From the NCBI GenBank assembly GCA_963741925.1, contig CAVUJU010000005.1, forward strand, positions 2,625,447-2,689,446: a stretch of 64,000 nt of DNA, in the 5' to 3' direction. Below the pieces are notes generated by a model. That model was not told the origin of the DNA. It ran no database searches and worked only from the letters and a program-made list of their open reading frames with translations. Positions 14,104-31,527 of the stretch are shown here, one piece after another. Within the stretch, counting starts at the first letter, position 1. Every line of letters begins with the position of its first letter. Source of the DNA: an uncultured Acidobacteriota bacterium (lineage in GTDB: Bacteria > Acidobacteriota > Thermoanaerobaculia > Multivoradales > DATKCC01). A program made the position numbers and the translations under genes.

Positions 14104-15508
14104 TCAGCGAGTCCAGCGCAGGGTGACCAGGGTCTCGTCGTCGGTGCCGTCGCCGTTCGCCCGCTGGAAGGTGTTGGCGGCGTGCTCGGCGGTCAGGTCG
14201 ATCCCCGGCAGGATCCCGAGACGAAGGCCCAGGTCGACCTTCTCCCAGTCCCAGGCGCCGCTGGGGAAGGGCGTCACGGCGGGGTTGGCGAAGCGGTTGT
14301 CGAGCGCCGAGTAGCGAACCGCGGGCTGGACGTAGGGGAAGAGCTGGCGGCCGGCGACCGCCCAGCGCAGCGGCAGGTCGAGAGCCCAGGCGAGCTCGAC
14401 TTCGTAGCCGCTGCGCGGCAGCGACGCCACCTCCTGATCCACGTACTGACCGAACAGGGAGAGGCCGCCCAGGTAGAGCCAGAGGTTCGCCCCGGCCTCG
14501 GTCTTGGTGTCGCCGGAGAGGCCCGGGTAGGGGTACTGGTTCCAGGGGCCGCGGAGGAAGTCGAGGTCGCCGCCGTAGAAGGTGCCCTGGAGCTCCACCG
14601 TGTCGGCCAGCTTGCGGCGGTAGCCGTAGACCATGAAGTCGATCGCCCGCTCGCCCGCGGCGTCGGCCCAGCGCCCGCCGGCCGCCGCACCGACCTCGAG
14701 GTTGCCGTCGGCGTCGAGCCCTTCGACCTCGGCGTCGTAGAGGATCGGGATGCCGCTCTTGAGCGTCGGATCGGGGTGCGGGCGCAGGAAGGCGTCGGTG
14801 CCGTTGTCACCCGCCAGGGCGTTCGGGTCGCGGAAGAAGAGGGGGTTGCCCTGGGTGAGGGAGCCCTTCACGTAGAGATGGCCGCCGAGGTCCAGGCCGA
14901 GCTCTAGACCGAAGTCCTCCATCCGGTTGAAGGCCGTGGACACGACGCCGTAGGACTCCAGGTGGCGGTCGTTCTGGCGCTCCATCTTCGGGAACTTGCC
15001 GATCTGGACGTAGCCGCCGAACCCGTCGGCCGGCGTCGCGGGAACGATCGGCCGGCCGAAGCGCAACCAGGCCTCGTCGACGTCCACCTGGCGGTCGCCG
15101 GAGGTGGGGTTGCGGTCGTAGAGGTCGAAGAAGTCGACCTTGGCGTGCGCCTGGACCGCCTCGCCCCAGCGCGCGTCGGCGTAGAGGGTGAAGACGGAGA
15201 AGCTCCAGGTGGTCGCCGGCGTTGACCGTCTCGAGGAACGCGCGGTCCTGGCCCACCGGCAGCATGTCGGGCGTGAAGGGGAAGTCGACCGGGAAGCGGT
15301 TCTCGTCGCTGTGCCGGAAGTGCGTCCTGGCCTCCAGCCGGAGGTCCACCCGCAGGCTCGGCGCGTCGCCGGCCTCCGGCGCGGCCGCCTCCGGACCCGC
15401 GGCCCCGCCCTGGGCCGCCGCCGGCCCGGCGAGGAGGACACCCACGAGCAGGAGGAAGGGAAGGGGGCGAGAGCTTGGGATCCGCGCCCTCAGAGCCAGT
15501 GAAGCCAT
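14104..15508 (-). CDS. Putative outer-membrane beta-barrel protein, apparent frameshift near 15205-15215
   Basis: Signal peptide MASLALRARIPSSRPLPFLLLVGVLLAGPAAAQG in one frame (ATG 15508). After ~15210 the reading continues in a second frame (FSVFTLYADARWGEAVQAHAKVDFFDLY...), with alternating hydrophobic beta-strand character to the C-terminus (...LVTLRWTR). Confidence 0.5.
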
Positions 15509-15540
15509 CTCCGGCCTTACCGCGGGCGCCCCCGAATCAC

Positions 15541-15605
15541 CCCTCGCAGCGTTGCGCCTCCTCGAGGTAGGCCCTGCTACGCCTGCGTCTGCGCGCCCGG
15601 CGAGG
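15541..15605. repeat. Dispersed ~60-bp intergenic repeat family B (cgacgcaggcgtagcagggcctacstcgaggaggmgcaacgc), reverse orientation
   Basis: Reverse complement matches the copies at 30650-30715 and 42590-42665. Lies between convergent operons. Confidence 0.5.
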
Positions 15606-15925
15606 GGCGCACGGACCACCGCGCTCCGCGCGGCGGTGCCCACGCCCTCGCGACGGGCGGAGAGGTCTTCACAGGCTCTCAGCGGAGACGATCCACGGGT
15701 CCTTGCCAACGGGTGGCTCCCTCTGTGAGTCCGACGAGAAGGACCGACCCTACCACGGAGCGCGGTCCGTGCCGGAGCCCCTCGCCGAGCCACGAGGCCC
15801 GCCCGGGCGGCCGGGGAAGGTGGAAGCGGCGGCCCGCGTTGTAGAGGCTGAGCCCGCTTCGAGTCTGGTAGGCTCGCAGGTCGACGACGCCCACAGCGAA
15901 ACCGTAGAGATCCCCAACCCTTCGA

Positions 15926-16417
15926 ATGATCGGGACCCTGATCCTGAGCCACGGCCGCCTCGCCGACGAGCTCCTCGCGGCCGCCCGGACCATCACCGGC
16001 GGCCTGGAGGGCTTCGGCGCCCTGTCCCTCGACTGGAGCGACGGCTTCGAAGAGGCCAAGACCCAGATCCGGGATGCCCTGGAGCACCTCGATCGCGGCG
16101 ACGGCGTGCTGATCCTCACCGACATGTTCGGGGGAACGCCGTGCAACGTCGCCCTCACCTTCCTCGATCCGGGTCGGGTGGAGATCGTCACCGGCGTCAA
16201 CCTGCCCATGGTCGTCCGGCTCGCCTGCTTGGGACGGCGGGAGCTCACGGTCTCCGAGGCCGCGAGCTGGCTGCGCGACAAGGGCCGTCACAGCATCTGC
16301 CTGGCGAGCGACATCCAGGCCCAGCGCTGCCCGCCGCCGGGCGGCTGCTCCGACGCCGCCGAGGAGGCCGCCCGGGAGGCGGCGGAGGTGGGCGCCGGTC
16401 GCGAGGATCGCGGGTGA
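15926..16417 (+). CDS. PTS mannose-family EIIA component
   Basis: 163 aa (MIGTLILSHGRLADELLAAARTITG...GVLILTDMFGGTPCNV), matching EIIA-Man with a phosphorylatable His near the N-terminus. Confidence 0.8.
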   Translation: MIGTLILSHGRLADELLAAARTITGGLEGFGALSLDWSDGFEEAKTQIRDALEHLDRGDGVLILTDMFGGTPCNVALTFLDPGRVEIVTGVNLPMVVRLACLGRRELTVSEAASWLRDKGRHSICLASDIQAQRCPPPGGCSDAAEEAAREAAEVGAGREDRG

Positions 16418-16683
16418 TCGAGCGCGAGGTCGAAATCGTCAACCGACTCGGCCTCCACGCTCGCGCCGCCTCCAAGCTCGTTCACCTGGCGGCGTCGTTC
16501 CAGAGCGACGTGGCCCTGGTCCAGGATGGCGAGGAGGTGGACGCCAAGAGCATCCTCGGCATCTTGCTGCTGGCGGCGGGGCAGGGCAACCGCATCGTCC
16601 TGCGCTGCGAGGGCGAAGACGAGGAGCAGGCCATGGCCGCGATCACCGGGCTGATCGCGGACCGCTTCGACGAGGAGTCCTGA
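16414..16683 (+). CDS. ptsH: Phosphocarrier protein HPr
   Basis: 89 aa (VIEREVEIVNRLGLHARAASKLV...) with active-site His15 and the Ser46 region GKSILGILLLAAGQG. GTG overlaps the EIIA stop. Confidence 0.85.
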   Translation: MIEREVEIVNRLGLHARAASKLVHLAASFQSDVALVQDGEEVDAKSILGILLLAAGQGNRIVLRCEGEDEEQAMAAITGLIADRFDEES

Positions 16684-16698
16684 GCGGGATCGACGGCG

Positions 16699-18490
16699 AT
16701 GGGCCATGACAACGAGGAGATCGTGAAGCGCGCGCAAATGCGGATTCTGCAGGGCGTCGGCGTCTCGGGCGGCATCGCCATCGGCCGAGCCGTGGTGGTC
16801 GAGACGCGGGCTCTGGAGGTTTACAGGATCCCGCTCGCCGACGCCGACGTGGAGCCGGAGATCGAGCGCTTCGCCGAGGCGGTGGAGCAGGCCCGGGCGG
16901 AGGTGGCGCGCACCCGGCAGCGGGCCGGCGAGGACCTGGGCGAGCACACGGGGGCGATCTTCGACGCCCACCTCCTGGTGCTCTGCGACACCGGCTTCCT
17001 CGATCGCGTCACCGAGCGGATCCGCCAGGAGCGGGTCAACGCCGAGTGGGCCGTCTACCGTGCCGCCGAGGAGTACGCCGGACGCTTCGCGGCGATGGAG
17101 AACGAGTACATCCGCGAGCGCCGCATCGACATCGAGGACGTGGTCCACCACCTGCTGCGCCGCCTCCAGGGGATCTCTCACCACGAGCTGTCCGAGATCG
17201 AGGGGCCGATGGTGATCGTCGCCGACGACCTGACGCCGTCGGAGGCGGTCCGGCTGGGGCGGGGCCGGGCGGTCGGCTTCGCCATCGAGAGCGGGGGCCG
17301 CACCTCCCACACCACGATCATCGCTCGCTCGCTCGGGCTGCCGGCGGTCACCGGTCTGGGCGAGGTCACCGAGCTCGTCACCGACGAGGACCCGGTGATC
17401 ATCGACGGGCAGGAGGGGGTGGTGATCCTGCACCCGACCCGCTCGACGCTCAAGCGCTACCGGCACCGGCTCGCCGAGATGGAGAGTCGCGAGATCAGCC
17501 TCCTCGAGACCCGGGAAGCTCGAGGCGCGGACCGCGGACGGTGACGCCATCCAGCTCATGGCCAACATCGACCTGCCCGAGGAGCTCGAGGACGTCCTCG
17601 CCTTCGGCGCCCGCGGGATCGGCCTCTACCGCAGCGAGTTCCTGTACATCGAGAGGAGCCCGGAGCTGCCCAGCGAGGAGGAGCACCTGGCCCTCTATCG
17701 GCACCTGGTCGAGGCCGCCGCCCCCGAGCCGGTGATCATCCGGACCTACGACCTCGGCGGGCGCAAGCTCGCCCAGGAGCTGCTCGAGACCCACGAGGAC
17801 AACCCGGTGCTCGGCCTGCGCGGCATCCGGCTGACCCTGGCGCGGCCGCAGGTGTTCAAGGCCCAGATCCGGGCCCTCCTGCGCGCCGGCCTCTACGGCG
17901 ATCTGCGGCTCATGCTGCCCCTGATCTCGGGGCTCGACGAGGTCCGGGCCTTCCGCGCCTTCGCCGCCGAGGTCATGGCGGAGCTCGAGGCCGAGGGCCT
18001 CGAGTACCGGCGGGACCTGCCCCTGGGGGTCATGATCGAGGTGCCCTCGGCGGCGGTCATCGCGGACGTCCTGGCCCGCGAGGTGGACTTCTTCTCCATC
18101 GGCACCAACGACTTGATCCAGTACTCCCTGGCGGTCGACCGCAACAACGAGCACGTCGCCGACCTCTACCAGCCGGCGCATCCGGCGATCCTGCGCATGC
18201 TACGCTTCGTGATCTGCAGCGCGGCGGAGGCCGGGATCGAGGTGGGGCTGTGCGGCGAGATGGCCGCCGACCCCCGCTATGCGGCGCTCCTGATCGGCCT
18301 CGGGCTGCGCCGCTTGTCGGTGACGCCGCGGTCGGTCCCGGCGCTCAAGCAGCGGATCCGGGGGCTGGCGGCGGAGGCCCTCGCCGAGCTCGCGGAGCGC
18401 TGCCTGGAGCTCGGCACCGCCGCCGAGGTGGAGGACCTCCTGGACTCGGCGCTCGACCCCATGGTCGAGACCGCCGCGAGGCGGGCATAG
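16699..18490 (+). CDS. ptsI: Phosphoenolpyruvate-protein phosphotransferase (Enzyme I), apparent frameshift near 17512-17518
   Basis: N-terminal half 16699-17544 holds the phospho-His domain (GGRTSHTTIIARSLGLP). The C-terminal PEP-utilising half 17558-18490 (GIGLYRSEFLY...IGTNDLIQY...CGEMAADP) is in a different frame. The junction lies in a ccgggaag homopolymer context. Confidence 0.85.
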
Positions 18491-18519
18491 GCCCGGTCAC
18501 CGAAGAGAGGAGCGAGGCG

Positions 18520-19440
18520 ATGAGGCGGATCGAGGTCCGGACCACGACCCTGGTCCTCGCCGGCCTGCTGGCGGCGGGGCTCGCCGGCTGCAGCCGGGCG
18601 CCCCGGCCCGTGCTCCCCGGCCCCGGGGAGCTCTCGCCCACTCTCGACGACGTCCCGGCGAACGTCCGGGAGGCGGCCCTGGAGACCGGCTCGACGACGC
18701 CGGCCTCCGGCTCCGAGTCGACCCCGGATACCCCCTCGGAGCCGGCCGCGCCGAAGCCCAAGTCCACCTCGTCCAAGAGCCCCGACACCAAGGTGATCGT
18801 CGTCGGGCGCGCCAAGAGCACGCCGGGGCAGACGCTGGTGGAGGCCGCCCAGGCCGCCCGGGAGAGCCGCGCCAAGTCGGGGCCGTCGGTCGCCTCGGTG
18901 ACCAACGAGAACCTCAAGGACTACCAGGACGCCCCGTTGACCTTCGCCCAGCCCGAGCCCCACGCCGGCTCGAAGAGCGCCGGGTCCGCCGCCGAGGTTG
19001 GGAAGGACGGTGCCCAGGCCGGCGCCGAAACGAGGGAGACGTACTGGCGCTCCCGGGTCCTCGACCTCCGGCTCGCCATGCGCGGAGCGGTCGATCGGCT
19101 CTCCGACCTCGAGACCCGAGCCGCCGGCCTGCGCCGCGACTTCTACGCCCAGGACAACCCCTACGTCCGCGACGGGCAGATCAAGCCCGCGTGGGACCGG
19201 GCTCTCGACCAGATCGCGTCGACCCGCGAGTCGATCCACCGGCTGCGGGACCAGCTCGCCGAGACGCTGGACGAAGGCCGCCGGGCCGGCGCCCTGCCCG
19301 GCTGGCTCCGCGCGGGCATGGAGCTCGAGCCGACCCCCGACGAGCTCCCGGCCGAGGCCAAGGCCGGCGAGCCGAAGGCCTACGAGCCGGAAGAGCCCAA
19401 GGTCCTCGACGAATCGGCCCAGCCCCCGCCGGGAAGCTCC
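18520..19440 (+). CDS. Lipoprotein with Ser/Pro/Ala-rich low-complexity region; no stop codon before miaB in the same frame
   Basis: Lipobox LLAAGLAGCS after MRRIEVRTTTLVLAG. The frame stays open through the ATG of miaB at 19441 (see findings). Confidence 0.45.
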
Positions 19441-20772
19441 ATGAGCCAGGGTCCCGTCCCGCGGCCCCGGCGCTTCTTCATCGAGACCTGGGGCTGTCAG
19501 ATGAACGAGCTCGACAGCCAGAGGATGGCGGGGCAGCTCATGCAGCAGGGGCTGTTGCCGACCCGCGAGCCGGCGGACGCGGACGTGCTCTTGCTGAATT
19601 CCTGTAGCGTACGCGACAACGCTGAAAACAAGGTCTACTCCCGGATCGGTGAGTACCGGGCCCTCAAGAAGGACCGCGAGCTCCTGATCGGCCTCTGTGG
19701 CTGCGTCGCCCAGCAGGAGGGGGCGGCGGCCCTGGATCGGGCCCCCGAGCTCGACTTCGTCCTCGGACCGGCGCGGGTGGGGGAGCTGCGCGAGGTCCTC
19801 GCCCGCCGCCTGGCCGGAGAGCGGGTGGTCGCCACCGGGTTCCCCGAGACGCGGGCCTTCGACCTCGACGCGATCTCCCGCGACGGCGGCTACAAGGGGA
19901 TGGTCACGTGCATCGAGGGGTGCGACAAGCGGTGCACCTTCTGCATCGTGCCCCGGACCCGGGGCCCGGAGCGCTGCCGGCCCATGGCGGAGATCGTGGC
20001 CGAGGTTCGCCACCTGGTGGCCTACGGCTTCTGCGAGATCGAGCTCCTCGGCCAGACGATCAACCACTGGCGCGAGCCCGGGGGCGAGCAGGACTTCGCC
20101 GACCTCCTGGACGCCGTCGCGCCCCTCCCGGGCGTCGAGCGCCTGCGGTTCATCACCTCGTACCCGCGGGACTTCAGCGACGAGATGATCGCCGCCTTCG
20201 CGCGCTACCCGAACCTCTGTCCCTACCTCCACCTGCCCGTCCAGTCCGGCTCCGATCCCGTCCTCCGGCGCATGGGCCGGGGCTACACCGTGGCCTCCTA
20301 CCTCGGCCTGGTCGACCGGATCCGCGCGGCCCGCCCCGACGTGGTCCTCTCGACCGACCTGATCGTCGGCTTCCCGGGCGAGACGGAAGCGCAGTTCCTG
20401 GAGACGGTTCGTCTCGTCGAGCGGGTGCGCTACGGGTCGCTCTACGCCTTCAAGTACTCGCCGCGGCCGGGGACCGCCGCCCCGCGCCTCGACGGTCACG
20501 TGCCGGTGCCGGTGGCCAACCGCCGCCTCAACGAGCTCTTCGCGGTCCAGGCCCGGATCCAGAGCGAGCTCAACCGGGAGCTGGTGGGGAAGGCCTACGA
20601 GGTCCTGGTGACCGGATGGGGTAAGCAGGCCGGCTTCCAGACCGGCCGCACGCCCTGTCACCGCACGGTGAGCTTCGCCACCGGCGGCGAGCCCGCCGAC
20701 CTCGGGAGCCTCGTGCCGGTCGTCGTGGAGCAGGCCTACCCTCACAGCCTGGTCGGCCGCCGGGCAACTTGA
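19441..20772 (+). CDS. miaB: tRNA-2-methylthio-N6-dimethylallyladenosine synthase (radical SAM methylthiotransferase)
   Basis: MTTase N-terminal domain (RFFIETWGCQMNELDSQ...LLNSCSVRDNAE), radical SAM CxxxCxxC (CDKRCTFC) and a C-terminal TRAM-like region. Confidence 0.85.
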   Translation: MSQGPVPRPRRFFIETWGCQMNELDSQRMAGQLMQQGLLPTREPADADVLLLNSCSVRDNAENKVYSRIGEYRALKKDRELLIGLCGCVAQQEGAAALDRAPELDFVLGPARVGELREVLARRLAGERVVATGFPETRAFDLDAISRDGGYKGMVTCIEGCDKRCTFCIVPRTRGPERCRPMAEIVAEVRHLVAYGFCEIELLGQTINHWREPGGEQDFADLLDAVAPLPGVERLRFITSYPRDFSDEMIAAFARYPNLCPYLHLPVQSGSDPVLRRMGRGYTVASYLGLVDRIRAARPDVVLSTDLIVGFPGETEAQFLETVRLVERVRYGSLYAFKYSPRPGTAAPRLDGHVPVPVANRRLNELFAVQARIQSELNRELVGKAYEVLVTGWGKQAGFQTGRTPCHRTVSFATGGEPADLGSLVPVVVEQAYPHSLVGRRAT

Positions 20773-20803
20773 CCTTCGGGAAGCCGCCCCTCAGAATAGG
20801 TCC

Positions 20804-21304
20804 ATGCCAGAGACCGCTGAAGAGCTTCGCATGGAGATCAAGGGGCTGATGCTCGATCCCGCCTCGAACGTCCCCATCGTCATCCTCCGCGACGAGGAGA
20901 GCGACGTGTTCCTCCCGATCTGGATCGGGGTGTTCGAGGCGAACGCCATCGCCCTGCGCATCGAAGGCGTCGAGCCGCCCCGGCCGATGACCCACGATCT
21001 CCTCCTCTCGAGCCTCCAGAGCCTCGGCGCCGTCATCGAACGGATCGTGATCTCCGACCTCCGGGACAGCACCTTCTTCGCCATCATCCACCTGGACCGC
21101 CGGGGCGAGAAGCTCACCCTCGACTCCCGTCCGAGCGACGCCATCGCGCTCGCGCTGCGGGCCAACGCCCCGATCTTCGTGCTCCGCGCCGTCCTCGAGA
21201 AGGCCAAGGCGGTGGACGTCGACGCCGGCGCGTCGGACGAGGAGAAGATCCGCAAGATGCTCGAGGAGCTCGGTCCCGAGGACCTCGGCAAGTACACGAT
21301 GTAA
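20804..21304 (+). CDS. Bifunctional nuclease domain (DUF151) protein
   Basis: 166 aa. IVILRDEESDVFLPIWIGVFEANAIA...RPMTHDLL...DSRPSDAIALALR matches the BFN/DUF151 fold. Confidence 0.7.
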   Translation: MPETAEELRMEIKGLMLDPASNVPIVILRDEESDVFLPIWIGVFEANAIALRIEGVEPPRPMTHDLLLSSLQSLGAVIERIVISDLRDSTFFAIIHLDRRGEKLTLDSRPSDAIALALRANAPIFVLRAVLEKAKAVDVDAGASDEEKIRKMLEELGPEDLGKYTM

Positions 21305-21385
21305 GGTCGGCCCGGCGCTCTCGGGCGCCTCCTGCTGCAACTCCGCATCTCCACGCGCCGCCTGCGCTCCGCACTTTCCTAGCGA

Positions 21386-22153
21386 GGCTCCGCCTCAAAC
21401 CGACGAGGCGTCTGAAGCGTCTCCGGCGCCACGGGTCGCCGGTCCCCCGCCCACGCCGACCGATCACGGCTGCGCTCCTCGGAACGGCGACTCCAGACCG
21501 CCAGGTTCATCGGATGCCCCCCGCAACCCCTCGATCCCCTTCCCACCCCACGGGGGGGAAGGGGACGGTTGATCGGATGCCCCCCGCAACCCCTCGATCC
21601 CCTTCCCACCCCACGGGGGGGGAAGGGGACGGTTGATCGGATGCCCCCCGCAACCCCTCGATCCCCTTCCCACCCCACGGGGGGGGAAGGGGACGCCCCC
21701 ACCCTCTCGGTCTGTTGCTCGAGGAACTCGGCTCGTTCGTCACGATTCTGGCCTGATCAGACATCGAGTGAAGCTCCGCCTCAAACCGACGGGGCGTCTT
21801 GAGCGCCTTGGGCTTGCTGAGTCGCAGGTCCCCCGCCCACGCCGACCGTTCACGGCTGCGCTCCTCGGAACGGCGACTCCAGACCGCCAGGTTCATCGGA
21901 TGCCCCCCGCAACCCCTCGATCCCCTTCCCACCCCACGGGGGGGAAGGGGACGGTTGATCGGATGCCCCCCGCATCCCCTCGATCCTCTTCCCACCCCAC
22001 GGGGGGGAAGGGGACGGTTGATCGGATGCCCCCCGCATCCCCTCGATCCCCTTCCCACCCCACGGGGGGGGAAGGGGACGCCCCCTCCCCGTATCGCTGC
22101 GCCGAAAAACTTGGCTCGTTCGTCACGACTCTGGCCTGATCAGACATCGAGTG
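21386..22153 (+). repeat. Two tandem copies (21386-21771; 21772-22153) of a ~385-bp composite repeat element, each containing three tandem ~64-bp hairpin units (ggttgatcggatgccccccgcaacccctcgatccccttcccaccccacgggggggaaggggac)
   Basis: Read directly. 64-bp arrays at ~21503-21697 and ~21890-22085 have no unique spacers. Each unit holds the palindrome ccccttccc/gggaagggg. Flanking conserved arms are gcctcaaaccgacgrggcgtct... and ...ctcggctcgttcgtcacgaytctggcctgatcagacatcgagtga. ORFs here (PPQPLDPLPTPRGGKG...) are repeat-driven, not coding. Confidence 0.8.
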
Positions 22154-22226
22154 ACCCGTCAACCGTCAAGTGACAGGGTACCTGGCGAGAGGGCCCACCA
22201 GGAGACGTCACTTGACGGTTGACGGG
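22154..22226. repeat. Perfect 20-bp inverted repeat (cccgtcaaccgtcaagtgac ... gtcacttgacggttgacggg) with a 33-bp spacer, upstream of parA
   Basis: Read directly. The same element recurs at 30598-30751 with a nested insertion. The arms contain TTGAC motifs. Confidence 0.7.
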
Positions 22227-22368
22227 CCACTAGCTGCGCCTAACTCCCTCAATTCCAGATGGTTACGCATCATGTCGGCGCGCCGACATCGGCGCGCCGA
22301 CGAGGTTCGGCCGCCCCGCCTCGCGTCTTGACCTCCCGGGACCCATCCTGTAGATTCCGGGCCGTCCC

Positions 22369-23127
22369 ATGATCATCGCGATCACCAACCAGAAGGGCGG
22401 AGTGGGGAAGACGACCACCGCCATCAACCTCTCCGCGGCCCTCGCCAACAAGGGTCTCCGGACCCTGCTCATCGACCTCGATCCCCAGGCGAACAGCTCC
22501 ATGTCGTTCGTCGACGTCCACGCCCTGGGGCCGTCGATCTACGAGGTCCTCACCGAGACCGACCGATCGCTCCCGGAGATCCTCCAGCCGGTCGCCCACG
22601 TGCCGAACCTGGAGATCGCCCCGGCGAGCATCTCCCTGGCCAAGATCGAGGCCAAGCTCCTCGGAGAGATCGACAGCCACTTCCGCCTCAAGGACGAGCT
22701 CGTCTGCGTGCGCGATACCTACGACTACGTGGTCATCGACACGCCGCCGACCTTGGGCATCATCACGGTCAACGCGTTGGTCGCGGCGACCCACGTGCTG
22801 ATCCCGATCCAGTCGAGCTACTTCGCCCTCGAAGGCACCGACGACCTCCTCGAGACGATCGACAAGATCAAGCAGCGGGCGAACCCCGAGCTCCAGCTCC
22901 TGGGCGCCCTCATCACCCTGTACGACAAGCGCACCCTCCTGTCCCGCGACATCCAGGAGCAGATCTCCGGCGTCTTCGGCGGCAAGGTCTTCAAGACGCT
23001 GATCACCAAGAGCGTCCGGCTCGAAGAGAGCCCGGCCTACCGCGAGTCGATCTTCACCTTCGCCCCGACGTCGAGCGGCGCGGCAGAGTACTACCAGCTC
23101 TCCGAGGAGGTCCTCGGCCGTGTCTAG
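22369..23127 (+). CDS. parA: Chromosome partitioning ATPase ParA/Soj
   Basis: Deviant Walker A KGGVGKTTT. Full-length ParA similarity over 252 aa. Confidence 0.9.
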   Translation: MIIAITNQKGGVGKTTTAINLSAALANKGLRTLLIDLDPQANSSMSFVDVHALGPSIYEVLTETDRSLPEILQPVAHVPNLEIAPASISLAKIEAKLLGEIDSHFRLKDELVCVRDTYDYVVIDTPPTLGIITVNALVAATHVLIPIQSSYFALEGTDDLLETIDKIKQRANPELQLLGALITLYDKRTLLSRDIQEQISGVFGGKVFKTLITKSVRLEESPAYRESIFTFAPTSSGAAEYYQLSEEVLGRV

Positions 23128-23986
23128 CCCCAAGCGTGGCCTTCCGGTGCGAGTCAAGATGCGCCACGACAACCACTTCGTCGAGGAGCTCACGGCCCGC
23201 CACGAGGTGCCGGTCGGGCGCATGGTGCCCCTGGCCGCCATCGAGCCCGACCCGAACCAGCCGCGGACGATGATGGGCGATCTGGGCGAGCTGGTGGGGT
23301 CGATCCGCGAGCGCGGCGTCCTCGAGCCGATCCTCGTGCGCCGTCTCGACCCCGACACCGGGGCCGACGACGACGCGGGCAGCGAGGCCTTCCGGATCAT
23401 CTCGGGCGAGCGGCGCTGGCGGGCGGCACAACAAGCCGGCCTGTTCGAGGTGCCGGTCATCGAGATGGACGTGACCGAGCAAGAGGCGCTCGAGATCGCC
23501 CTGATCGAGAACCTCCAGCGCAAGGACCTGACGCCCTTCGAAGAGGCCGAAGGCTACAAGGCGCTCGCCGAGCGCCACGGCTACACCCACGAGGAGATCG
23601 CCGAGGCGGTGGGGAAGGCGCGCTCGGTGGTCACCGAGAGCCTGTCCCTCCTCCAGATGCCGCCCCGGGTACGCGACACGGTCCAGGCCCTCGGGCTGTC
23701 GTCGAAATCCCTGCTCCTGGAGGTCCTGAAGGCGGGCGAGGAAGACGAGATGATCCGCCTCCTCGAGGAAGTCTCCAGCCACGGCCTCAACCGCGACGAC
23801 CTCCGCCGCCGCCTCCGCAACCGGGACCGGGCGAGCACCCAGAGCGGCCGCCGCAAGCCCTACGCCTTCAAGTTCCGGGCGCCCGACAAGAGCTTCACGC
23901 TCAACCTCACCTTCCGCCAGAGCGAGGTGGAGAAGGACGATTTGATCCAGGCCCTGGAGCAGATCCTCTCCGAGCTCCGCGGGTAG
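23120..23986 (+). CDS. parB: Chromosome partitioning protein ParB/Spo0J
   Basis: ParB box GERRWRAAQQAGL and HTH region (GYTHEEIAEAVGKARSVVTESLSLL). Overlaps the parA stop. Confidence 0.9.
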   Translation: MSSPKRGLPVRVKMRHDNHFVEELTARHEVPVGRMVPLAAIEPDPNQPRTMMGDLGELVGSIRERGVLEPILVRRLDPDTGADDDAGSEAFRIISGERRWRAAQQAGLFEVPVIEMDVTEQEALEIALIENLQRKDLTPFEEAEGYKALAERHGYTHEEIAEAVGKARSVVTESLSLLQMPPRVRDTVQALGLSSKSLLLEVLKAGEEDEMIRLLEEVSSHGLNRDDLRRRLRNRDRASTQSGRRKPYAFKFRAPDKSFTLNLTFRQSEVEKDDLIQALEQILSELRG

Positions 23987-23987
23987 A

Positions 23988-24045
23988 CCGGATCCCCCCC
24001 GCGCGCATCCCCTCGTTTCCTTTCCCACTCCCAGGGGAAAGGCCT
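23988..24045. repeat. Hairpin repeat singleton (cctttcccactcccaggggaaagg) related to family A, immediately after parB
   Basis: Palindrome read directly. A variant of the ccccttccc...gggaagggg motif. Probably a terminator-like stem-loop. Confidence 0.5.
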
Positions 24046-24908
24046 GACCGCGATTCGACCGGGCGGCTGCCCGGCTGGGAGATCTGTCCCCCGAGTCACC
24101 ACGCCTCGTGAAGCGGCCGAGCTCCGTCTCGGCCGGACGAGCGTCCGGGAGGGCGTCGGCGGGACGATCGCACCGCAGCCAATATGGTGCACCGGCCTGC
24201 CATGCCGAGTCGCCATCGTCTGTCTCGATAGGCTTCTGCGACATATTCACCCACGGCATTTCCGCAGGCCATCCACAGGGCCCGAGCATGGGGAGAGCCG
24301 CGAGGCATGCGAGGTATGGGGTCTCGGGGCCGGGGCGCTCGGCTCGACGGTCGGTGCCTACGGAGGCGTTTGGCCGGCCGAGACGGAGCTCGGCCGACGG
24401 GGGTGTTGCCGGGAGGTCGTCCGGGCCTCCGCTGGTGGCTCGTTGCTTGCCGTGGGGTTCGCCCGGCCGAGGCGGAGCTCGGCCGCTTGTACGCCCGCGA
24501 GGGTGCATGGTCAGAGAGGTGCGAGTCCACTCCAGGCATACGCTCTCCGGCCTGTAATCGACTCTGACTGCGTCGCCGCGAGGCGGGGTGGGGAGTAGGA
24601 GGAGATGAGCGATCAGTCCGTAGGCAACGAACCCGATTCGGCCGGTAGGACTCGGCGAGCCTGCAAGCGAATGGCGAAGCCCGGACCCGGGAGAGCCGGG
24701 GTGCCCGTCGCGCTGAGGGGTAGCGTGCGAAAGCGTGGGCGGGGGGCCTACAGGTGGTTGGGGACGGAATGATCGCGACGGCCAGGCACCGTAAGCGGGG
24801 AGACCTGTCGTCCACGAGGAGAAGCAGGGCGGCAGGAGTCAGAGCTTCCATAGTAGCGAGGAAGCGCCGTAATGGGCGTGGAGCGAAGGGAAGCAGGAAG
24901 GTGGATGC

Positions 24909-26246
24909 GTGACGGCCAGGACGAGAGACGAGACCCCGGCGCGAGTGGGGCGAGCCCCTAACCCCGGCGGAGAGGTCCGGTCCCGATGGGGCTGGGCCGA
25001 ACCCTCGGTCTGGACGGAGCGCATGCTGCGGGCCCTGGAGACCGGGGTCCGAGGAGGGACGTGGTTCAGCCTGATCGACAAGGTCTGCCGGAAGCAGACG
25101 CTTCTGCGCGCGTTCGAGAGAGTCGAGCGCAACGGGGGCGCCGCGGGGGTAGATCACGTCACCGTGGATCACTACGGATCGCGCCTGGAGGAAGAGGTGG
25201 AGACGCTGTCGGCGTCCTTGCGGGACGGTAGCTACCGCCCGCAGGCGGTGCGTCGGCGGTGGATCCCCAAGCCGGGAAGCCGCGAGAAGCGGCCCCTGGG
25301 GATTCCGACGGTGCGCGATCGGGTGGTGCAGGGCGCGTTGCGCTTGGTCCTGGAGCCGATCTTCGAGCGGGATTTCGCCGAGCACAGCTACGGCTTCCGC
25401 CCGGGGCGCGGGTGCCGGGAAGCGCTGGAGCGGGTCGAGGAGCTCCTCGACTCGGGCCACACCTGGGTGGTGGACGCCGACCTGCGCCGGTACTTCGACA
25501 CGATCGATCCGGAGCGCCTGCTGGCGCGGGTGCGCGAGAAGGTATCGGACGGGCGAGTGCTCGCCCTGGTCGAGTCCTTTCTCGAGCAAGAGGTACTGGA
25601 CGGACTGGAGAGCTGGACGCCCGAGCGGGGAACCCCGCAAGGCGCGGTGATCAGCCCCCTACTGGCCAACATCTACCTCGACCCGCTGGACCATCTTCTG
25701 GCCCGCGAGGGCTTCGAGATGGTGCGCTACGCCGACGACTTCGTGATCCTGTGTCGGAGCGAGACCGAGGCCCGCCGGGCGCTTGCCCTGGTGGAGGCGT
25801 GGACGGCCCAGGAGGGCCTGAGCCTTCACCCGGACAAGACGGCGGTGGTGGATACCACCGAGCGGGGTGGCTTCGACTTCCTGGGGTACCACTTCGAACG
25901 GGGCTACCAATGGCCCCGCGACAAGAGCCTCCGGAAGCTCAAGGACACCCTGCGCCGCAAGACCCGGCGCACCAACGGTCACAGCCTCGATCGGATCACC
26001 TGGGACGTCAGCCGGACGTTGCGTGGTTGGTACGAGTACTACCGCTACAGCCACCCGACGACCTTCCGGCCGCTCGACCGGTGGATCCGCATGCGCCTGC
26101 GCAGCATCTTACGCAAGCGTCGCCGAGGCCGAGGCCGGGGCCGCGGTCGCGACCACCAGCGCTGGCCCAACGCCTTCTTCGCCGAGCATGGGCTGTTCAG
26201 CCTCGAAACCGCCTATGCCTCGGACCCGCAGTCCTCTCGTAGGTGA
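24909..26246 (+). CDS. Group II intron-encoded reverse transcriptase/maturase (no endonuclease domain)
   Basis: 445 aa. RT blocks include RIPKPGSREKRPLGIPTVRDRVVQ, FRPGRG and the YADD motif (MVRYADDFVILC). The X/thumb domain is followed by an Arg-rich tail. No HNH motif. Confidence 0.9.
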   Translation: MTARTRDETPARVGRAPNPGGEVRSRWGWAEPSVWTERMLRALETGVRGGTWFSLIDKVCRKQTLLRAFERVERNGGAAGVDHVTVDHYGSRLEEEVETLSASLRDGSYRPQAVRRRWIPKPGSREKRPLGIPTVRDRVVQGALRLVLEPIFERDFAEHSYGFRPGRGCREALERVEELLDSGHTWVVDADLRRYFDTIDPERLLARVREKVSDGRVLALVESFLEQEVLDGLESWTPERGTPQGAVISPLLANIYLDPLDHLLAREGFEMVRYADDFVILCRSETEARRALALVEAWTAQEGLSLHPDKTAVVDTTERGGFDFLGYHFERGYQWPRDKSLRKLKDTLRRKTRRTNGHSLDRITWDVSRTLRGWYEYYRYSHPTTFRPLDRWIRMRLRSILRKRRRGRGRGRGRDHQRWPNAFFAEHGLFSLETAYASDPQSSRR

Positions 26247-26257
26247 ACCACCAACCG

Positions 26258-26336
26258 GAGAGCCGGATGCGGGAGATCCGCACGTCCGGTTCGGAGGGAG
26301 GGGGGGCAGGGAATCCAACCTGCCCTCCCTACCCCT
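26258..26336 (+). ncRNA. Group II intron catalytic domains V and VI
   Basis: Sequence folds as described above. Located just after the IEP stop. Confidence 0.7.
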
Positions 26337-26549
26337 ATCATGGGTTCGAGGGGTTGGGCGACGGGGGGCGAGGATCTGGGCGGCGCCGGGCACGACCTCC
26401 GCCGAAGTGGGGATTACATGATGTCAAGTTCGCCGCGTGGCAGGGCACGGCCTTCGCGGGGGCCGAGCCGTCTCCGGCGACCGGAACTTGACATAATGTA
26501 TCTTATCGGACGTTATATCGGCGCGCCGGGTCGCGCCGCACGCCGCGCC

Positions 26550-26984
26550 TCACCCGCCGCCGTCCTCGGCCCGCCACTCGCCGGCCAGGTCCTCGTCCTC
26601 TTCCACCCGTAACCGGACCAGCTCGACGCCCGGCGGCAGCCAGCCCGCGAGCCGCGCGTGGATCCACTGCACCAGGTTCTCACTCGACGGGATCGACCCG
26701 CCGGCGCCGAACTCCGGAACCACCTCGTTCATGTGCTGATGGTCGAGGACGTCGACCACGTGGCGGCTCACCAGGCCGTCGAGCTCCGCCAGGTCGACGA
26801 CGAAGCCGGTATCCGGATCGGGCTCGCCCGCCACGGTCACGAAGAGCCGGTAGTTGTGGCCGTGCCCGGGCAGGTTCGCGCACTTGCCGAACCGGGCTCG
26901 GTTCTCCTCTTCCGACCACTCGGGCCGGCGGTACAGATGGCTGGCGCTGAAACGGTAGCGGCGTTCGAGGCGGAGTCTCATCGC
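26550..26984 (-). CDS. queD: 6-carboxy-5,6,7,8-tetrahydropterin synthase (PTPS family)
   Basis: MRLRLERRYRFSASHLY...CANLPGHGHNYRLFVTV... with the PTPS Cys/His Zn-site motifs. The ORF-track start at 27089 is probably over-extended. Confidence 0.8.
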   Translation of the reverse strand, partial: AMRLRLERRYRFSASHLYRRPEWSEEENRARFGKCANLPGHGHNYRLFVTVAGEPDPDTGFVVDLAELDGLVSRHVVDVLDHQHMNEVVPEFGAGGSIPSSENLVQWIHARLAGWLPPGVELVRLRVEEDEDLAGEWRAEDGGG

Positions 26985-27129
26985 GCTCGTCTCCCTGGCT
27001 TGGCGGTCGGGCTCGGTTCGGACTTGGTTCGGACTTGGTAGGGGGCCGGAGGGAATCGGCCGAAGGAGCCCGGTCTGCTGGTGGCCCACCGAGCTTCGAG
27101 GCCGCGGCGGCCGCTATAATCTCAGCCCC

Positions 27130-29505
27130 GTGCGGCTCCTCGACCGCTATCTCCTGAGCGAGATCTCCGGCCCCCTCGGGCTGGGGTTCCTAGTCTATAC
27201 GTTCATCCTTCTGCTTCAGGCGTTGTTCAAGTCGGCGGAGATGATCATCCGCCGCGGGCTGCCGGTCGCGACCGTCGGCAAGCTGCTCCTGCTCTCCCTG
27301 CCGAACATCGTGGTGTTGACCATCCCGATGTCGCTCCTCTTTGGCGTGCTCATCGCCATCGGCCGCCTGGCCTCGGACAGCGAGCTCGTGGCCATGCGCG
27401 CCACGGGCATCAGCCTGCTGAGCCTCTACCGGCCGATCCTCCTCCTCTCGGCGCTGCTCACCGCGGTCAACACGCTGCTCATGGTCTACGTGCTGCCCTG
27501 GGGCAACCACCAGCTCCAGCTCGAGCGGCTCGAGATCCTGACCCAGAGCATCTCGACCCAGATCGAGCCGCGGGTCTTCTGGGACGAGTGGCAGGATCAG
27601 CTGCTCTACGTGTTCGAGGTCCCGGGCCCGGGCCAGCCCTGGAAGGGCGTGTTTCTCGCCGAGTCGGTCCCCTCGACCCAGGACAACCAGGTGACCGTCG
27701 CCGAGCGCGGGCAGGTCCGGGTCGACGAGAACGGCGAGCGGGTCGTGCTCGAGCTGGGCGATGCCCGGGTGCACCGGGTCGACCTCTCGAAGCCGGACCG
27801 CTACGACATCTCCCGGCACAGCAGCCTCGAGGTGGTGCTCGAAGACCAGTTCGCCAGCGAGCAGCGGGCCAGGATCAGCGCGTCGAAAGGGGTCCGCGAG
27901 CTCGGCCTGGGCGAGCTTCGCCAGTGGATCGCCGACCGAAGCCGGTCGCGCGAGATCCGCCGCCTCGCCCGCGTGGAGATCCACAAGAAGTTCGCGATCC
28001 CGTTCGCCTGCCTGGTGTTCGGGATCTTCGCCCTGCCCCTGGGGTTCAACAACCGGCGCGGCAGCAAGGCCTCGGGCTTCGCCCTGTCCATCCTGGTGAT
28101 CGTCGGCTACTGGGTGCTCCTCGACTCGGGCGAGAAATGGGCCCAGGCCGGCGGCATCCCCCCCTGGCTCGCCATGTGGTTCCCGAACCTGTTCGGGGCC
28201 TCCCTCGGCCTCTTCCTCCTCGGCCGGCGCAACCGGGACAAGAGCCTTCTCCTGACCAAGATCGACCGCTGGGTGCGCCGCGACCTCTGGGCGCGGGTCC
28301 AGTTCCTCCAGCGCCGGCGGCGGCAGCGGCGGGCCGACCGGCGGGCGCGGATGCGCGACCGGCTCCAGCCCCGGAAGGCCCACGTCGTCATCCGGCTCCC
28401 CCGCTTCCAGGTCCTGTTCCCGAACATCATGGACCGCTACGTCCTGCGGGTCTTCTCGGGGGTCTTCTTCCTGGTCCTGCTCTCGGGGGTCTCGCTCTAC
28501 GTCCTCGCCGACCTCACCGGCAAGGCGGACGAGATCTTCAAGAACCGGGTGAGCCACTCGGTGGTGCTCGCCTACTACGGCTACTCGTCGCTCCAGATCT
28601 TCTACGAGATCGCACCGGTGCTCGTGCTGGTGACCACGCTCATCACTTTCAGCCTGCTCTCGAAGTCCAACGAGGTCACGGCGTTGAAGGCCCTCGGCGT
28701 GAGCCTCTACCGGCTGGCCGTCCCGGCCATGGTGGCGGCGCTCGGGATCACCCTCTTCGCGGTCTTCCTCCAGTCGGAGGTCCTGCCCGCCTCGAACCAG
28801 CGCGTCGCCCAGCTCGACGACCAGATCCACGGCCGCGAGACCGCCCGGACCTACCGGCGCGCGGACCGGCAGTGGCTTTTCGGGCACGACCACTACATCT
28901 ACAACTACCTCCACTACGACCCCGCGACCAAGAGCCTGCAGCGGCTCCAGGTCTTCGAGTTCGACGCCCGGCACCAGCTCACCCGGCGCCTGGTGGCCGA
29001 CCGGGCGGTGTACGACGGCAACGGGTGGTGGCGCTTCGAGAACGGCTGGTTCCGGCGCTTCGACGGCGTCGAGGTGACCGAGTACGAGCGCTTCCCCGGG
29101 GAGGTCCTGGCCCAGTTCCCGGAAAAGCCCGACTACTTCGACTCGGAGGTCCGGCCCCCCGAACAGATGGGCTACGTCGAGCTCCGGCGGTATATCCAGG
29201 AGCTCGAGGGGAGCGGCCAGGCGGTGCCCGAGCTCCGGGTGGAGCTGCAGAACAAGGTCGCCTACCCCACCATCTCCCTGGTCATGGCCCTGGTCGCCCT
29301 GCCCTTCGCCTTCCGTCTCGGCCGGCAGGGCGCTCTCTACGGGGTGGGCCTGTCGCTGGTGCTGGGAATGATCTTCCTGGCGGTCTTCGCCTTCTTCAAG
29401 ACCATGGGCGAGGCCGGCCTGCTGCCTCCGGCGGTCGCCGTGTGGAGCCCGAACCTGGTGGCCGCGATGGTCTCGGCGTACCTGTTCCTGGGCGTGCGCA
29501 CCTGA
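27130..29505 (+). CDS. Fused LptF/LptG (YjgP/YjgQ family) lipopolysaccharide export permease
   Basis: 791 aa with two successive YjgP/YjgQ-type modules. Each has 6 TM segments and a periplasmic beta-jellyroll. They are joined by an Arg-rich linker (RRRRQRRADRRARMRDR). Confidence 0.8.
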   Translation: MRLLDRYLLSEISGPLGLGFLVYTFILLLQALFKSAEMIIRRGLPVATVGKLLLLSLPNIVVLTIPMSLLFGVLIAIGRLASDSELVAMRATGISLLSLYRPILLLSALLTAVNTLLMVYVLPWGNHQLQLERLEILTQSISTQIEPRVFWDEWQDQLLYVFEVPGPGQPWKGVFLAESVPSTQDNQVTVAERGQVRVDENGERVVLELGDARVHRVDLSKPDRYDISRHSSLEVVLEDQFASEQRARISASKGVRELGLGELRQWIADRSRSREIRRLARVEIHKKFAIPFACLVFGIFALPLGFNNRRGSKASGFALSILVIVGYWVLLDSGEKWAQAGGIPPWLAMWFPNLFGASLGLFLLGRRNRDKSLLLTKIDRWVRRDLWARVQFLQRRRRQRRADRRARMRDRLQPRKAHVVIRLPRFQVLFPNIMDRYVLRVFSGVFFLVLLSGVSLYVLADLTGKADEIFKNRVSHSVVLAYYGYSSLQIFYEIAPVLVLVTTLITFSLLSKSNEVTALKALGVSLYRLAVPAMVAALGITLFAVFLQSEVLPASNQRVAQLDDQIHGRETARTYRRADRQWLFGHDHYIYNYLHYDPATKSLQRLQVFEFDARHQLTRRLVADRAVYDGNGWWRFENGWFRRFDGVEVTEYERFPGEVLAQFPEKPDYFDSEVRPPEQMGYVELRRYIQELEGSGQAVPELRVELQNKVAYPTISLVMALVALPFAFRLGRQGALYGVGLSLVLGMIFLAVFAFFKTMGEAGLLPPAVAVWSPNLVAAMVSAYLFLGVRT

Positions 29506-30024
29506 GCGAGCTCGGCCGCAGCACGCAAATCGTGCACGCCGAACGGCGAAACTTGCAAGCGAAAGCTACCGGGCGGGGACGTCAAGCTCCCCCGCGAGGA
29601 CGGGAGGTGGAGCGAGGAACCGGTCTCTTCGGGGTGGAGCTTCGGGAGGATGTCAGGCTCGGGGAGACGCGCCGCGAAGGGCGGTCTCCCCGAGCTTCCG
29701 GTCCGTCAGGACGCGGAGGAGATTCGGAGTGGCACGCAGTGAAGGAAAGACATCGAGGGCCGTCCGGTACGGAGGTGCGTAGTCTCCGGCCGGGGCGAGA
29801 TCAATGCATTTCGGCAGGTTGGCGTCATGGCGGGAAGAAGTGTCAGTAGGGCTCCGAATCTCACTGACCGAGGTGTGCAGAAGGCGAAGCGCTTGACGCT
29901 TTGCTCAGATCGTTTCGAGATGTGTTCCTCGTAGCTCTGGACATCGCGGCGCGCGCTCCCTGTTCACCTGGAGAGTTAGATATGCAAGCATGAGGCCAAT
30001 CCCTCCGACGGCCTCCCCTTCCCC

Positions 30025-30558: not shown

Positions 30559-30597
30559 GCAATCACGATAGCAGCCGGTGCTCCGGCGTGTCTACTG

Positions 30598-30751
30598 ACC
30601 AGTCAACCGTCAAGTGACAGGGTATCTGGCGAGGATTTCTCGTCGCTGGCCAGGCGCTCCGACGCAGGCGTAGCGGTGCCTACGTCGAGGAGGAGCAACG
30701 CCGCAAGCGGCGAGAGGGACCGCCAGGGCACGTCACTTGACGGTTGACGGG
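30598..30751. repeat. Second copy of the 20-bp-arm inverted repeat element, carrying a nested ~90-bp insertion of repeat family B; lies upstream of ECF sigma paralogue 1
   Basis: Arms gaccagtcaaccgtcaagtgac / gtcacttgacggttgacggg. The inner segment gcgctccgacgcaggcgtagcggtgcctacgtcgaggaggagcaacgcc matches the copies at 15541-15605 and 42590-42665. Confidence 0.7.
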
Positions 30752-30801
30752 TCACTACTCTGATGACGTAATTTATTCTCTGAATCGGGAGAAAGGTCGC
30801 C

Positions 30802-31341: not shown

Positions 31342-31527
31342 CCTTTCGCCCCGCTGGAGAGCAAGCTCCATCCTACCACCTCGAGCGCGTCCGGGTGTCT
31401 CGAACCCGGGGTCGGGGGTCGGTCCGGGCGGCATCTCGCCGCTCGGCGCATCAGCGCCGGCGCCCAGGGGCCGTACGACCTCCGCCTCGATGGAACCGCG
31501 GAGTCGCACAGGATCGCCGCTTCCGCC

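Follow-up and report, generated by a model that had tools for sequence, protein, structure and literature searches.

A short inverted repeat found ahead of both parA and an ECF sigma gene in an uncultured Acidobacteriota bacterium is very probably a non-autonomous transposon inserting at CTAG-type sites

We examined a 64-kb stretch of DNA (64,000 nucleotides, here called the window) from an uncultured Acidobacteriota bacterium, in which an inverted repeat lies upstream of parA and again upstream of an ECF sigma gene. The repeat is very probably a non-autonomous DNA transposon (MITE) of an undescribed family, which would be mobilised in trans by a DDE-type transposase and would insert at the TA in (C/G)TA(G/C). 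Seen in the sequence are the inverted ends of a small, non-coding unit, a duplicated target flanking it, dispersed and near-identical copies in both orientations, presence or absence between close relatives, with empty orthologous sites in the latter, and a preference for (C)TA(G). A sequence-only reading of the same DNA had already proposed a MITE as one possibility, and the terminal inverted repeats, the direct flanking repeats, the dispersed copies and the empty sites described below all bear this out.

The 20-mer arm CCCGTCAACCGTCAAGTGAC occurs with no mismatch at 22155-22174 (+), 22207-22226 (-) and 30732-30751 (-), while the fourth arm, at 30599-30618 (+), has one mismatch to it (CCAG for CCCG). 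The arms had been described as identical at the two loci, which thus holds for three of the four, and the span first given for the repeat at parA, 22154-22226, did contain it, with a start one base off (the arm starts at 22155). No further copy of the 20-mer within 3 mismatches was found in the 64-kb window, its matches in shuffled sequence amounted to 0 (100 shuffles), and a whole-element profile search of the 64 kb detected no third copy. The two TTGAC motifs reported for each arm were confirmed in the outward reading. The repeat reaches past the 20-mer, and the two units, both TGAC...GTCA, were delimited together with their flanks as follows.

22148..22151, no strand assigned: left flank CGAG of the short copy, a degenerate CTAG, which doubles as the junction at the right end of the adjoining family-C repeat.
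22152..22229, no strand assigned: short copy of the putative MITE, 78 bp, with arms at 22152-22174 and 22207-22229; a CCTGG/CCAGG stem on the loop side prolongs the hairpin.
22230..22233, no strand assigned: right flank CTAG of the short copy, corresponding to the ancestral ..ATGTAG/CTGC.. site (alignment with L028 and L029).
30592..30595, no strand assigned: left target copy CTAC of the long copy, from flank reading and empty-site alignment.
30596..30754, no strand assigned: long (canonical) copy of the putative MITE, 159 bp, between two tandem ECF sigma genes; matched over its full length by nhmmer (E = 3e-52).
30634..30716, + strand: apical hairpin core module of ~83 nt (covariance-model match, 99.6 bits), absent from the short copy.
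30755..30758, no strand assigned: right target copy CTAC of the long copy; five related sequences have a single CTAC here.

The terminal inverted repeats are ~23-27 bp long, TGAC(G/C)CGTCAACCGTCAAGTGAC, with two GTCAA sub-repeats each; they are perfect in the short copy (window copy 1) and have one mismatch in the long copy (window copy 2). Folded as single-stranded DNA, the 78-bp copy forms one long hairpin of -29.8 kcal/mol (z = -7.6 vs shuffles) and so does the 159-bp copy (-49.5 kcal/mol, z = -7.3 vs shuffles), the latter with 63 pairs. The element is almost wholly self-complementary. Single arms, by inspection, are not self-complementary, just their outer 4 bp pairing. When the short copy was compared with the element model by nhmmer, only model positions 1-38 and 114-159 were matched. 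The only open frames are of ~50 codons and are solely the tails of spurious ORFs.

Both insertion sites were found empty in relatives. The sequence upstream of parA measures 36 bp in L028 vs 969 bp in the window (21303-22272), and the ancestral parA-side junction reads ...ATGTAG/CTGC..., whose TAG terminates, in the relatives, the BFN-domain gene upstream. At this site L029 is as short as L028, and the short L030 contig has the same downstream sequence with the element absent. In the window, the short copy adjoins another set of repeats.

21383..22151, + strand: family-C composite repeats, two in tandem, each with internal tandem units of 63 bp.

The family-C pair and the short copy make up a ~935-bp nest at the BFN stop codon, and the whole block is missing in the relatives. 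The junction ACATCGAG at the left flank of the short copy recurs at 21761-21768. At the sigma gene, the site is empty in five sequences from three lineages (L092/L093, L094 and L095/L096), which on the sigma-gene strand read GGTAGACA-N17/18-TATCGTGATTGCGTG with a single GTAG; exactly where these relatives have one GTAG, the window has GTAG, 159 bp and GTAG. A comparison of empty sites in relatives, which had been suggested from the sequence alone, thus found both window sites empty in one and the same metagenome-assembled genome (MAG), MFD01721.bin.1.17, to which L028 and L092 belong. On these alignments, the sigma and parA sites represent classic filled/empty pairs with target duplication, and it is part of our best explanation that both window copies would have been inserted after the split from the nearest sequenced relatives.

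Copies outside the window were searched with a 17-mer common to all arms in one genome per species. This gave 26 loci, of which 16 were lone chance matches in unrelated taxa and the other 10 came from the same MAG, "uncultured Acidobacteriota bacterium MFD01721.bin.1.17" (CAWIQD01), with a GC content of ~72%. The MAG holds at least 11 dispersed copies of the element on six contigs and in both orientations; the complete ones all share the long window copy's arm spacing of 130 nt, and several are mutually 99-100% identical despite different flanks. The neighbouring genes encode a CNNM/CorC transporter, a class II aminoacyl-tRNA synthetase, a CMD-family protein, alpha/beta hydrolases, a ScdA/hemerythrin protein, a peptidase and an SLT-LysM transglycosylase, which are mutually unrelated and include neither parA nor a sigma gene. 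Arms present only at the two loci, within conserved orthologous intergenic regions, had been named as the pattern contrary to a mobile element, and the opposite was found. The MAG is a close relative of the window organism (ParA 95% identical), while the more distant ParA homologues carry Thermoanaerobaculia labels. A 12.8-kb stretch of it (L028) is collinear with window 15171-30595 at a DNA identity of 84-89%. Along this stretch L028 is also without the family-B element of 15493-15678, for which TCA is duplicated in the window, and the group II intron of the window is likewise absent from L028.

Translation of the element and a search among proteins recovered spurious ORFs that cross further copies (P0149-P0155). 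P0149 marks a further copy elsewhere on the window's own 3.07-Mb contig (three copies are known in the window genome), P0155 marks one additional copy in MAG MFD01721.bin.1.17, and five copies in other metagenomes were found via such ORFs (P0150-P0153 among them), two of these being retrieved as DNA (L100, L101). Twelve outside copies were read as DNA (L004, L005, L009, L015, L017, L018, L022, L025, L026, L100, L101 and the truncated L013). Among them, L100 and L101 have the 159-bp element with variant arms TGGTCCGTCAACCTTCAATTGAC, both sides being changed in parallel. Such co-change of arm variants (TGACG/CGTCA vs TGACC/GGTCA; AAGTGAC/GTCACTT vs AATTGAC/GTCAATT) would fit a need of both ends for one transposase, and selection for the hairpin would account for it just as well. 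Among JGI metagenome contigs the 17-mer gave at least 57 loci, all of those listed being single-arm chance matches without further similarity, because the metagenome copies (L100, L101) have divergent arms. Viral contigs gave 3 single-arm matches with no further likeness to the element model and 0 matches in the core scan, and nothing in the plasmid collection was matched by BLAST with the whole element. L018 and L025 were considered as orthologues of window copy 2 and rejected, the first because ~100 kb of the same contig separate it from the syntenic region, the second because its flanks are unrelated. On our best explanation the element family is confined to a small group of uncultured high-GC Acidobacteriota, which are probably Thermoanaerobaculia.

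Where both ends of a copy could be read, the flanks are CTAG/CTAG in 8 copies, CTAC/CTAC, as direct repeats, in window copy 2 and L025, GTAG/CTAG in L022, and CGAG/CTAG in window copy 1 and L100; all intact flanks have TA at the centre. From these flanks, the duplication would be either TA (IS630-like) or the 4-bp NTAN (IS5-like). IS5 has a 4-bp duplication, C(A/T)A(G/A) (PMC11677980), and IS630 favours TA inside CTAG (Tenzen and Ohtsubo 1991, as cited in PMC2170065). The 4-bp reading, with ends TG...CA, fits CTAC/CTAC and the single tetranucleotide at the empty site with no extra change, and needs one extra mutation at L022 and one at the parA junction. The reading of TA within CTAG, with ends GTGAC...GTCAC, fits L022 and the parA junction (ancestral G-TA-G) with no extra change, and needs a mutated terminal base for the CTAC/CTAC of window copy 2 and L025. 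One extra mutation vs two is too small a gap to decide the duplication length. A 6-bp NCTAGN duplication (IS481-like) was ruled out, as the bases outside CTAG are not repeated.

CTAG is ~15-fold depleted in the window (11 observed vs 163 expected), and three of the 11 flank these repeats while at least three are C+TAG stop codons. Since CTAG is depleted and survives mostly as C+TAG stops, insertions would land at gene boundaries or beside earlier insertions. In L004, L017 and L018 the element starts right after the TAG stop codon of a gene, and in L004 the convergent neighbour genes both end inside the two target copies, with the opposite flank giving the stop codon. As every insertion makes a fresh CTAG at each end, elements would pile up side by side, and as the duplication rebuilds a stop codon or a -35 hexamer, insertions would avoid damage.

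A plausible course of events is that a DDE-type transposase encoded elsewhere, IS630-like or IS5-like, would bind both ends, with the two GTCAA sub-repeats of each arm as candidate binding sites. The element would be excised by cut-and-paste and inserted at the TA inside (C/G)TA(G/C), preferably CTAG, and gap repair would then duplicate the target as TA or as the 4-bp NTAN, regenerating the stop codon at gene ends and the -35-like hexamer at the sigma gene. In the parA copy the apex (81 bp) would have been deleted, and the effects on neighbouring genes would be neutral or incidental. No autonomous element with matching ends was detected, as the exact 17-mer arm scans of genomes, metagenomes and viral contigs gave no arm pair 1-2 kb apart, and the window held no obvious transposase candidate in a GC3-filtered ORF map, with Pfam applied only to the ORFs around the two sites.

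On a different route of mobility, the element would be a REP/REPIN-like or TIR-type repeat that owes its mobility to a tyrosine (HUH) transposase of RAYT/TIRYT type, from the IS200/IS605 superfamily, with (G/C)TAG as its conserved tag in place of a target duplication. It shares with those repeats the short extragenic hairpin doublet with a GTAG/CTAG tetranucleotide at the ends, and GTAG-tagged REPs and TIR repeats tied to tyrosine transposases are known, including an Acidobacteria-specific TIRYT group (PMC3733652). However, empty sites contain a single GTAG, while the filled site carries a pair in direct orientation, reading GTAG...GTAG along one strand, whereas REPIN tags are inverted (GTAG...CTAC). 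Moreover, single arms are neither palindromic nor stem-loops, unlike REPs, most copies have CTAG rather than GTAG, and a RAYT gene was not encountered in the stretches of genome examined. We therefore consider mobilisation by a tyrosine transposase very unlikely.

The two window copies of the putative MITE differ by the hairpin apex. The short copy equals the long copy minus alignment columns 39-119, which are window 30634-30714 (81 bp), and GGCGAG direct repeats border the missing apex at 30628-30633 and 30709-30714. Both of these repeats are perfect in just two copies, window copy 2 and L025, which are also the nearest matches to the arms of the short copy (71 and 73 of 78 positions, respectively). 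Complete copies outside the window are all of the long form, which the peptide-derived outside copies also match. As the outside copies are all long and the arms of the short copy are nearest to those with perfect GGCGAG, the short copy is probably a deletion derivative that lost its apex by slippage across the hairpin between the GGCGAG repeats, the direction from long to short resting on parsimony and microhomology. The 159-bp form, to which all complete outside copies belong, is the canonical and amplified one.

The extra segment of window copy 2 had been taken for a nested, ~90-bp member of repeat family B, of which the window contains two copies.

15493..15678, - strand: family-B MITE with ends GAGCCAGTGAAG...CTTCACAGGCTC, TCA duplicated at 15490-15492 and 15679-15681, and the core at 15534-15616; L028 is empty here.
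42556..42718, + strand: second family-B MITE, with the core at 42595-42677, adjoining a family-C repeat at a CTAG.

A core module is indeed shared, but the segment is 81 bp long, has neither the terminal repeats of family B (GAGCCTGTGAAG...) nor its TCA duplication, and belongs to the canonical long form. Its likeness to family B is limited to the central 65-76 nt of B (80-88% identity), and family B is a related family and not the same element as the 78/159-bp MITE. The ~83-nt core was also found in both window B copies, in a B-like element in L100 and in a diverged B-like copy in L022, and, in addition, in an L100 element that has distinctly different ends (GGGCTCGTCATGAAATAACTGC) and duplicates TAA. 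Across the families, 9 of the 28 base pairs of the core are changed on both sides with pairing kept, a level that 0 of 500 shuffles reached, and the core structure slid by 1-3 columns scores 0.03-0.07 vs 0.24 unslid; this covariation rests on three or four independent lineages. The long form is thus a mosaic in which ends specific to the family surround a hairpin core shared with other families, and some ancient chimerism is real. A further step would be to regard the ~83-nt apical hairpin (30634-30716) as an independently selected module carried by three or more MITE chassis whose ends are unrelated and whose duplications differ, namely the TG...CA/CTAG element, family B (GAGCCTGTGAAG..., TCA) and the L100 element (GGGCTCGTCATGAAATAACTGC, TAA); we regard this as unlikely.

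The same fold raises the alternative that the element, or its apical core, serves first of all as a structured RNA or DNA with a function (an mRNA stabiliser, processing site, terminator or sRNA) and that its mobility is secondary. This would suit the very stable fold and the core pairing conserved across MITE families with different ends, and effects on mRNA through RNase III or RNase E are known for Correia/NEMIS and ERIC elements (PMC10969869). On the other hand, there is no Rfam match even at E <= 1 and no T-run after the hairpin, copies stand in both orientations relative to their neighbours, presence differs between close relatives, and the core is lost from the short copy; besides, palindromic transposons can keep self-complementarity at the DNA level. 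We consider a primarily functional structure very unlikely.

The regulatory reading needs the gene context of the two window copies, for which the following features were located.

22369-23127: parA, with its ATG at 22369, 139 nt from the short copy.
23120-23986: parB.
30025-30558, 30802-31509 and 31528-32070, - strand: three tandem ECF sigma genes.
22328..22356, + strand: promoter-like site of parA, TTGACC-17-TAGATT (promoter scan), outside the element, 98 nt downstream of the putative MITE and 12 nt before the ATG.
30565..30594, - strand: promoter-like site of the sigma gene, TAGACA-18-TATCGT (promoter scan), outside the element and 6 nt before the GTG.

The promoter-proximal position reported earlier was confirmed, with 139 nt to the parA ATG and 37 nt from the long copy to the GTG (30558) of the sigma gene at 30025-30558 (-). 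Together with the two TTGAC motifs per arm, this position would suit a palindrome that serves as a shared operator or transcription factor site co-regulating parAB and the ECF sigma cluster. The idea fails because the parA and sigma promoter-like motifs persist in near relatives whose orthologous intergenic regions are without the element: the TTGACC-17-TAGATT block is conserved in L028, L029 and L030, all of them without the MITE, and TAGACA-18-TATCGT is kept in all five element-free relatives. In promoter scans of both regions no predicted promoter uses the TTGAC motifs of the element, and no sigma-70-type promoter was predicted to read out of the ends of either window copy. The scanner found no hybrid promoter starting from an outward TTGAC, the best -10 by eye after the parA-side arm being TAACTC, which is poor. 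Terminator-like sites were absent from both regions, and an intrinsic terminator (a GC-rich hairpin with a T-run behind it) was rejected, the hairpin having no T-run after it. A parS centromere site near parAB was rejected by consensus search, as TGTTNCACGTGAAACA had no match within 3 mismatches in the window and the arms are unrelated to it. Rfam returned for the window, at gathering threshold, only the group II intron, and nothing at E <= 1 for 30550-30800. An attC-like or integron site was rejected, by inspection, on the core-site sequence and the target duplication.

A check on whether copies lie at a consistent distance from genes had also been suggested; their spacing to the downstream start codon varies. 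In the related MAG, copies follow immediately upon stop codons (in one case between two convergent genes) and have unrelated genes as neighbours. With no use of the TTGAC motifs in a promoter, no terminator, Rfam family or parS found for the element, and with the unrelated contexts of the other copies, a shared operator is ruled out for practical purposes. What the insertion did at the sigma gene can be read more closely: the -35-like hexamer overlaps the target duplication and abuts the MITE end, the insertion lying immediately upstream, and the duplication rebuilds this hexamer. The A/T-rich stretch found at ~-40 to -60 in the relatives has been pushed 163 bp farther from the sigma promoter, which could make this promoter weaker. 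Whatever influence the insertions have on parAB or the sigma gene would be incidental, arising from upstream promoter DNA that was moved away or from a strong hairpin in RNA reading through, and would not amount to a designed common control.

Correia elements occur in long and short forms and duplicate TA. Like Correia/NEMIS elements, the element described here is in the range of ~100-160 bp, non-coding, with ~25-bp terminal inverted repeats, a long hairpin and a TA-containing target; it is found at gene boundaries or upstream of genes, differs in presence or absence from strain to strain, and has a long form and an internally deleted short form. In architecture and likely behaviour it resembles these bacterial MITEs (PMC10969869). 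Their side effects include outward promoters and RNase III cleavage at the repeats (PMC10969869), and by-product effects of this kind are conceivable for our element as well. It differs from them in having no sequence similarity, in its phylum, in its CTAG target vs any TA, in the lack of a predicted sigma-70-type promoter at the ends of either window copy, and in a copy number that is seemingly low (~10 per genome, with one MAG sampled).

With the IS630/Tc1-mariner MITEs (cyanobacterial Nezha and eukaryotic Stowaway), the element shares the central TA and the strong preference for CTAG, but window copy 2 and L025 have CTAC/CTAC, and an IS630-family transposase bearing such ends was not detected. 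IS5-family ends are typically GG/GA, and the TG...CA ends that the element has on the 4-bp reading are atypical for this family. The 4-bp C(T/A)A(G/A)-type duplication of the IS5 family (PMC11677980), in turn, fits CTAG/CTAG, CTAC/CTAC and the GTAG of the empty site (= CTAC on the + strand). Family B, with ends GAGCC... and a 3-bp TCA duplication, is more IS5/IS1031-like in appearance than the 159-bp element.

All in all, we regard the repeat as an ordinary selfish element that represents a previously undescribed family. The palindromes ahead of parAB and of the ECF sigma gene are not to be taken as regulatory sites, and the spurious ORFs that run through the repeats (P0149-P0155) are not to be treated as proteins. 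The element offers a clean case, backed by empty sites, in which a CTAG/TA target would restrict a MITE, within a high-GC genome depleted of CTAG, to stop codons and the termini of elements inserted before it, and this confinement would explain the repeat nests in the window. Its copies may also serve as recent insertion markers for telling apart closely related uncultured Thermoanaerobaculia-like populations. The hairpin core common to MITE families with different ends is the sole aspect of possible wider interest. If it were an independently selected module, the core would be a cargo aiding the transposition or retention of MITEs or serving the host (e.g. in RNA processing or stability), and MITE families in these Acidobacteria would evolve via end-swapping around a conserved functional hairpin.

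A directly adjoining family C repeat was recurrently found beside the hairpin MITE, namely in the window, in L022 (another locus with a hairpin-MITE copy), in L100 (a copy from another metagenome) and at P0149, another locus of the source genome's own contig. The family C repeats are composites of ~385 bp that contain 63-bp units arranged in tandem (GATCGGATGCCCCCCGCAACCCCTCGATCCCCTTCCCACCCCACGGGGGGGAAGGGGACGGTT), 3 of which are present per copy in the window and ~13 in L022. Its flanks carry CTAG-type sites, and no clear terminal inverted repeat of family C was seen. The repeats and the group II intron described here are located as follows:

Window 21383-22151: family C
Window 42719-42985: family C, inverted
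L022 2115-2960 and 3858-4185: family C
L013 5819-6408 (locus with a hairpin-MITE copy): family C
L004 1448-1653 (locus with a hairpin-MITE copy): family C
L028 7640-7889 (locus of the related MAG MFD01721.bin.1.17, syntenic with the window): family C
Window 15493-15678 and 42556-42718: family B MITE
Window 24373-26346: group II intron, with the RT ORF at 24909-26246 and Rfam Intron_gpII at 26258-26338

Since the order of two family C copies followed by the hairpin MITE (C-C-A) was found again at P0149, it is suggested that this nest as a whole can undergo duplication.

Family B ends in GAGCC(T/A)GTGAAG...CTTCAC(A/T)GGCTC, and its copy at 15493-15678 is surrounded by a 3-bp TCA duplication (15490-15492 and 15679-15681), with a clean empty site in L028. 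The duplication looks like an IS5/IS1031-type (TNA) signature. The hairpin core, the ~83-nt apical module of the long hairpin MITE (30634-30716), is common to family B and the hairpin MITE.

The group II intron was missing from L028, and it is 96.8% identical to a copy in the MAG locus L026, where the 5′ side of the intron begins with the small hairpin CCGGCCGAGACGGAGCTCGGCC and lies right against the CTAG flank of a hairpin MITE. The GGCCGAG...CTCGGCC hairpin motif is itself repeated in the window (321-366, 24109-24154, 24374-24396 and 24463-24485), and, by analogy with the terminator-targeting class C introns, it may represent the homing context of the intron.

CTAG is ~15-fold under-represented in the whole window (11 observed vs 163 expected), with TTAA, CTAA and TTAG likewise depleted and GTAG and CTAC near expectation. 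The remaining CTAGs are mostly stop codons (e.g. 7717, 8302 and 23124, the last being the parA stop) or repeat flanks.

In the Nitrospiraceae MAG locus L006 (1860-1990), a chance match to the hairpin arm lies where GTCAACCGTCA / TGACGGTTG motifs are clustered and iterated, which may represent an array of iteron-like or other repeats; the organism is an unrelated one, and beyond the motif the cluster is unrelated to the hairpin MITE. Separately, the window holds two copies, ~5.7 kb apart and 80-87% identical, of a segment that is ≥700 bp long (49817-50506 and 55526-56212), both in or near large ORFs (46959-51008 and 52017-55259) that look like paralogous genes, possibly of the repeat-containing toxin type.

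In both promoter-like sites (22351-22371 for parA, with its ATG, and 30556-30570 for the sigma gene, with its GTG), the -10 hexamer is only 6-12 nt ahead of the start codon, suggesting that mRNAs of this organism are leaderless or nearly so. Despite the presence of parAB, the canonical parS consensus TGTTNCACGTGAAACA had no match at ≤3 mismatches in window 1-64000. The triplet of tandem paralogous ECF sigma genes (30025-32070) is kept in relatives at sigma loci without the hairpin MITE (L092 3600-5534 and L095 765-2591), and the promoter-like block GGTAGACA-N17/18-TATCGTGATTGCGTG upstream of the third sigma gene is highly conserved across lineages.

An independent short-read assembly of the parA locus (L027, Logan contig SRR27973224_63082) breaks exactly within the 78-bp hairpin, its position 1 being window 22197, consistent with a repeat- or hairpin-induced break. 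Gene callers drew spurious ORFs through the repeats (P0149-P0155 and the window ORF 30037-30747 on the forward strand), one of them a 286-aa "protein" consisting solely of translated C-C-A repeats, and in L100 a ParE toxin annotation was extended through the repeat nest. Such repeat-spanning ORFs are an annotation artefact and deserve to be flagged.
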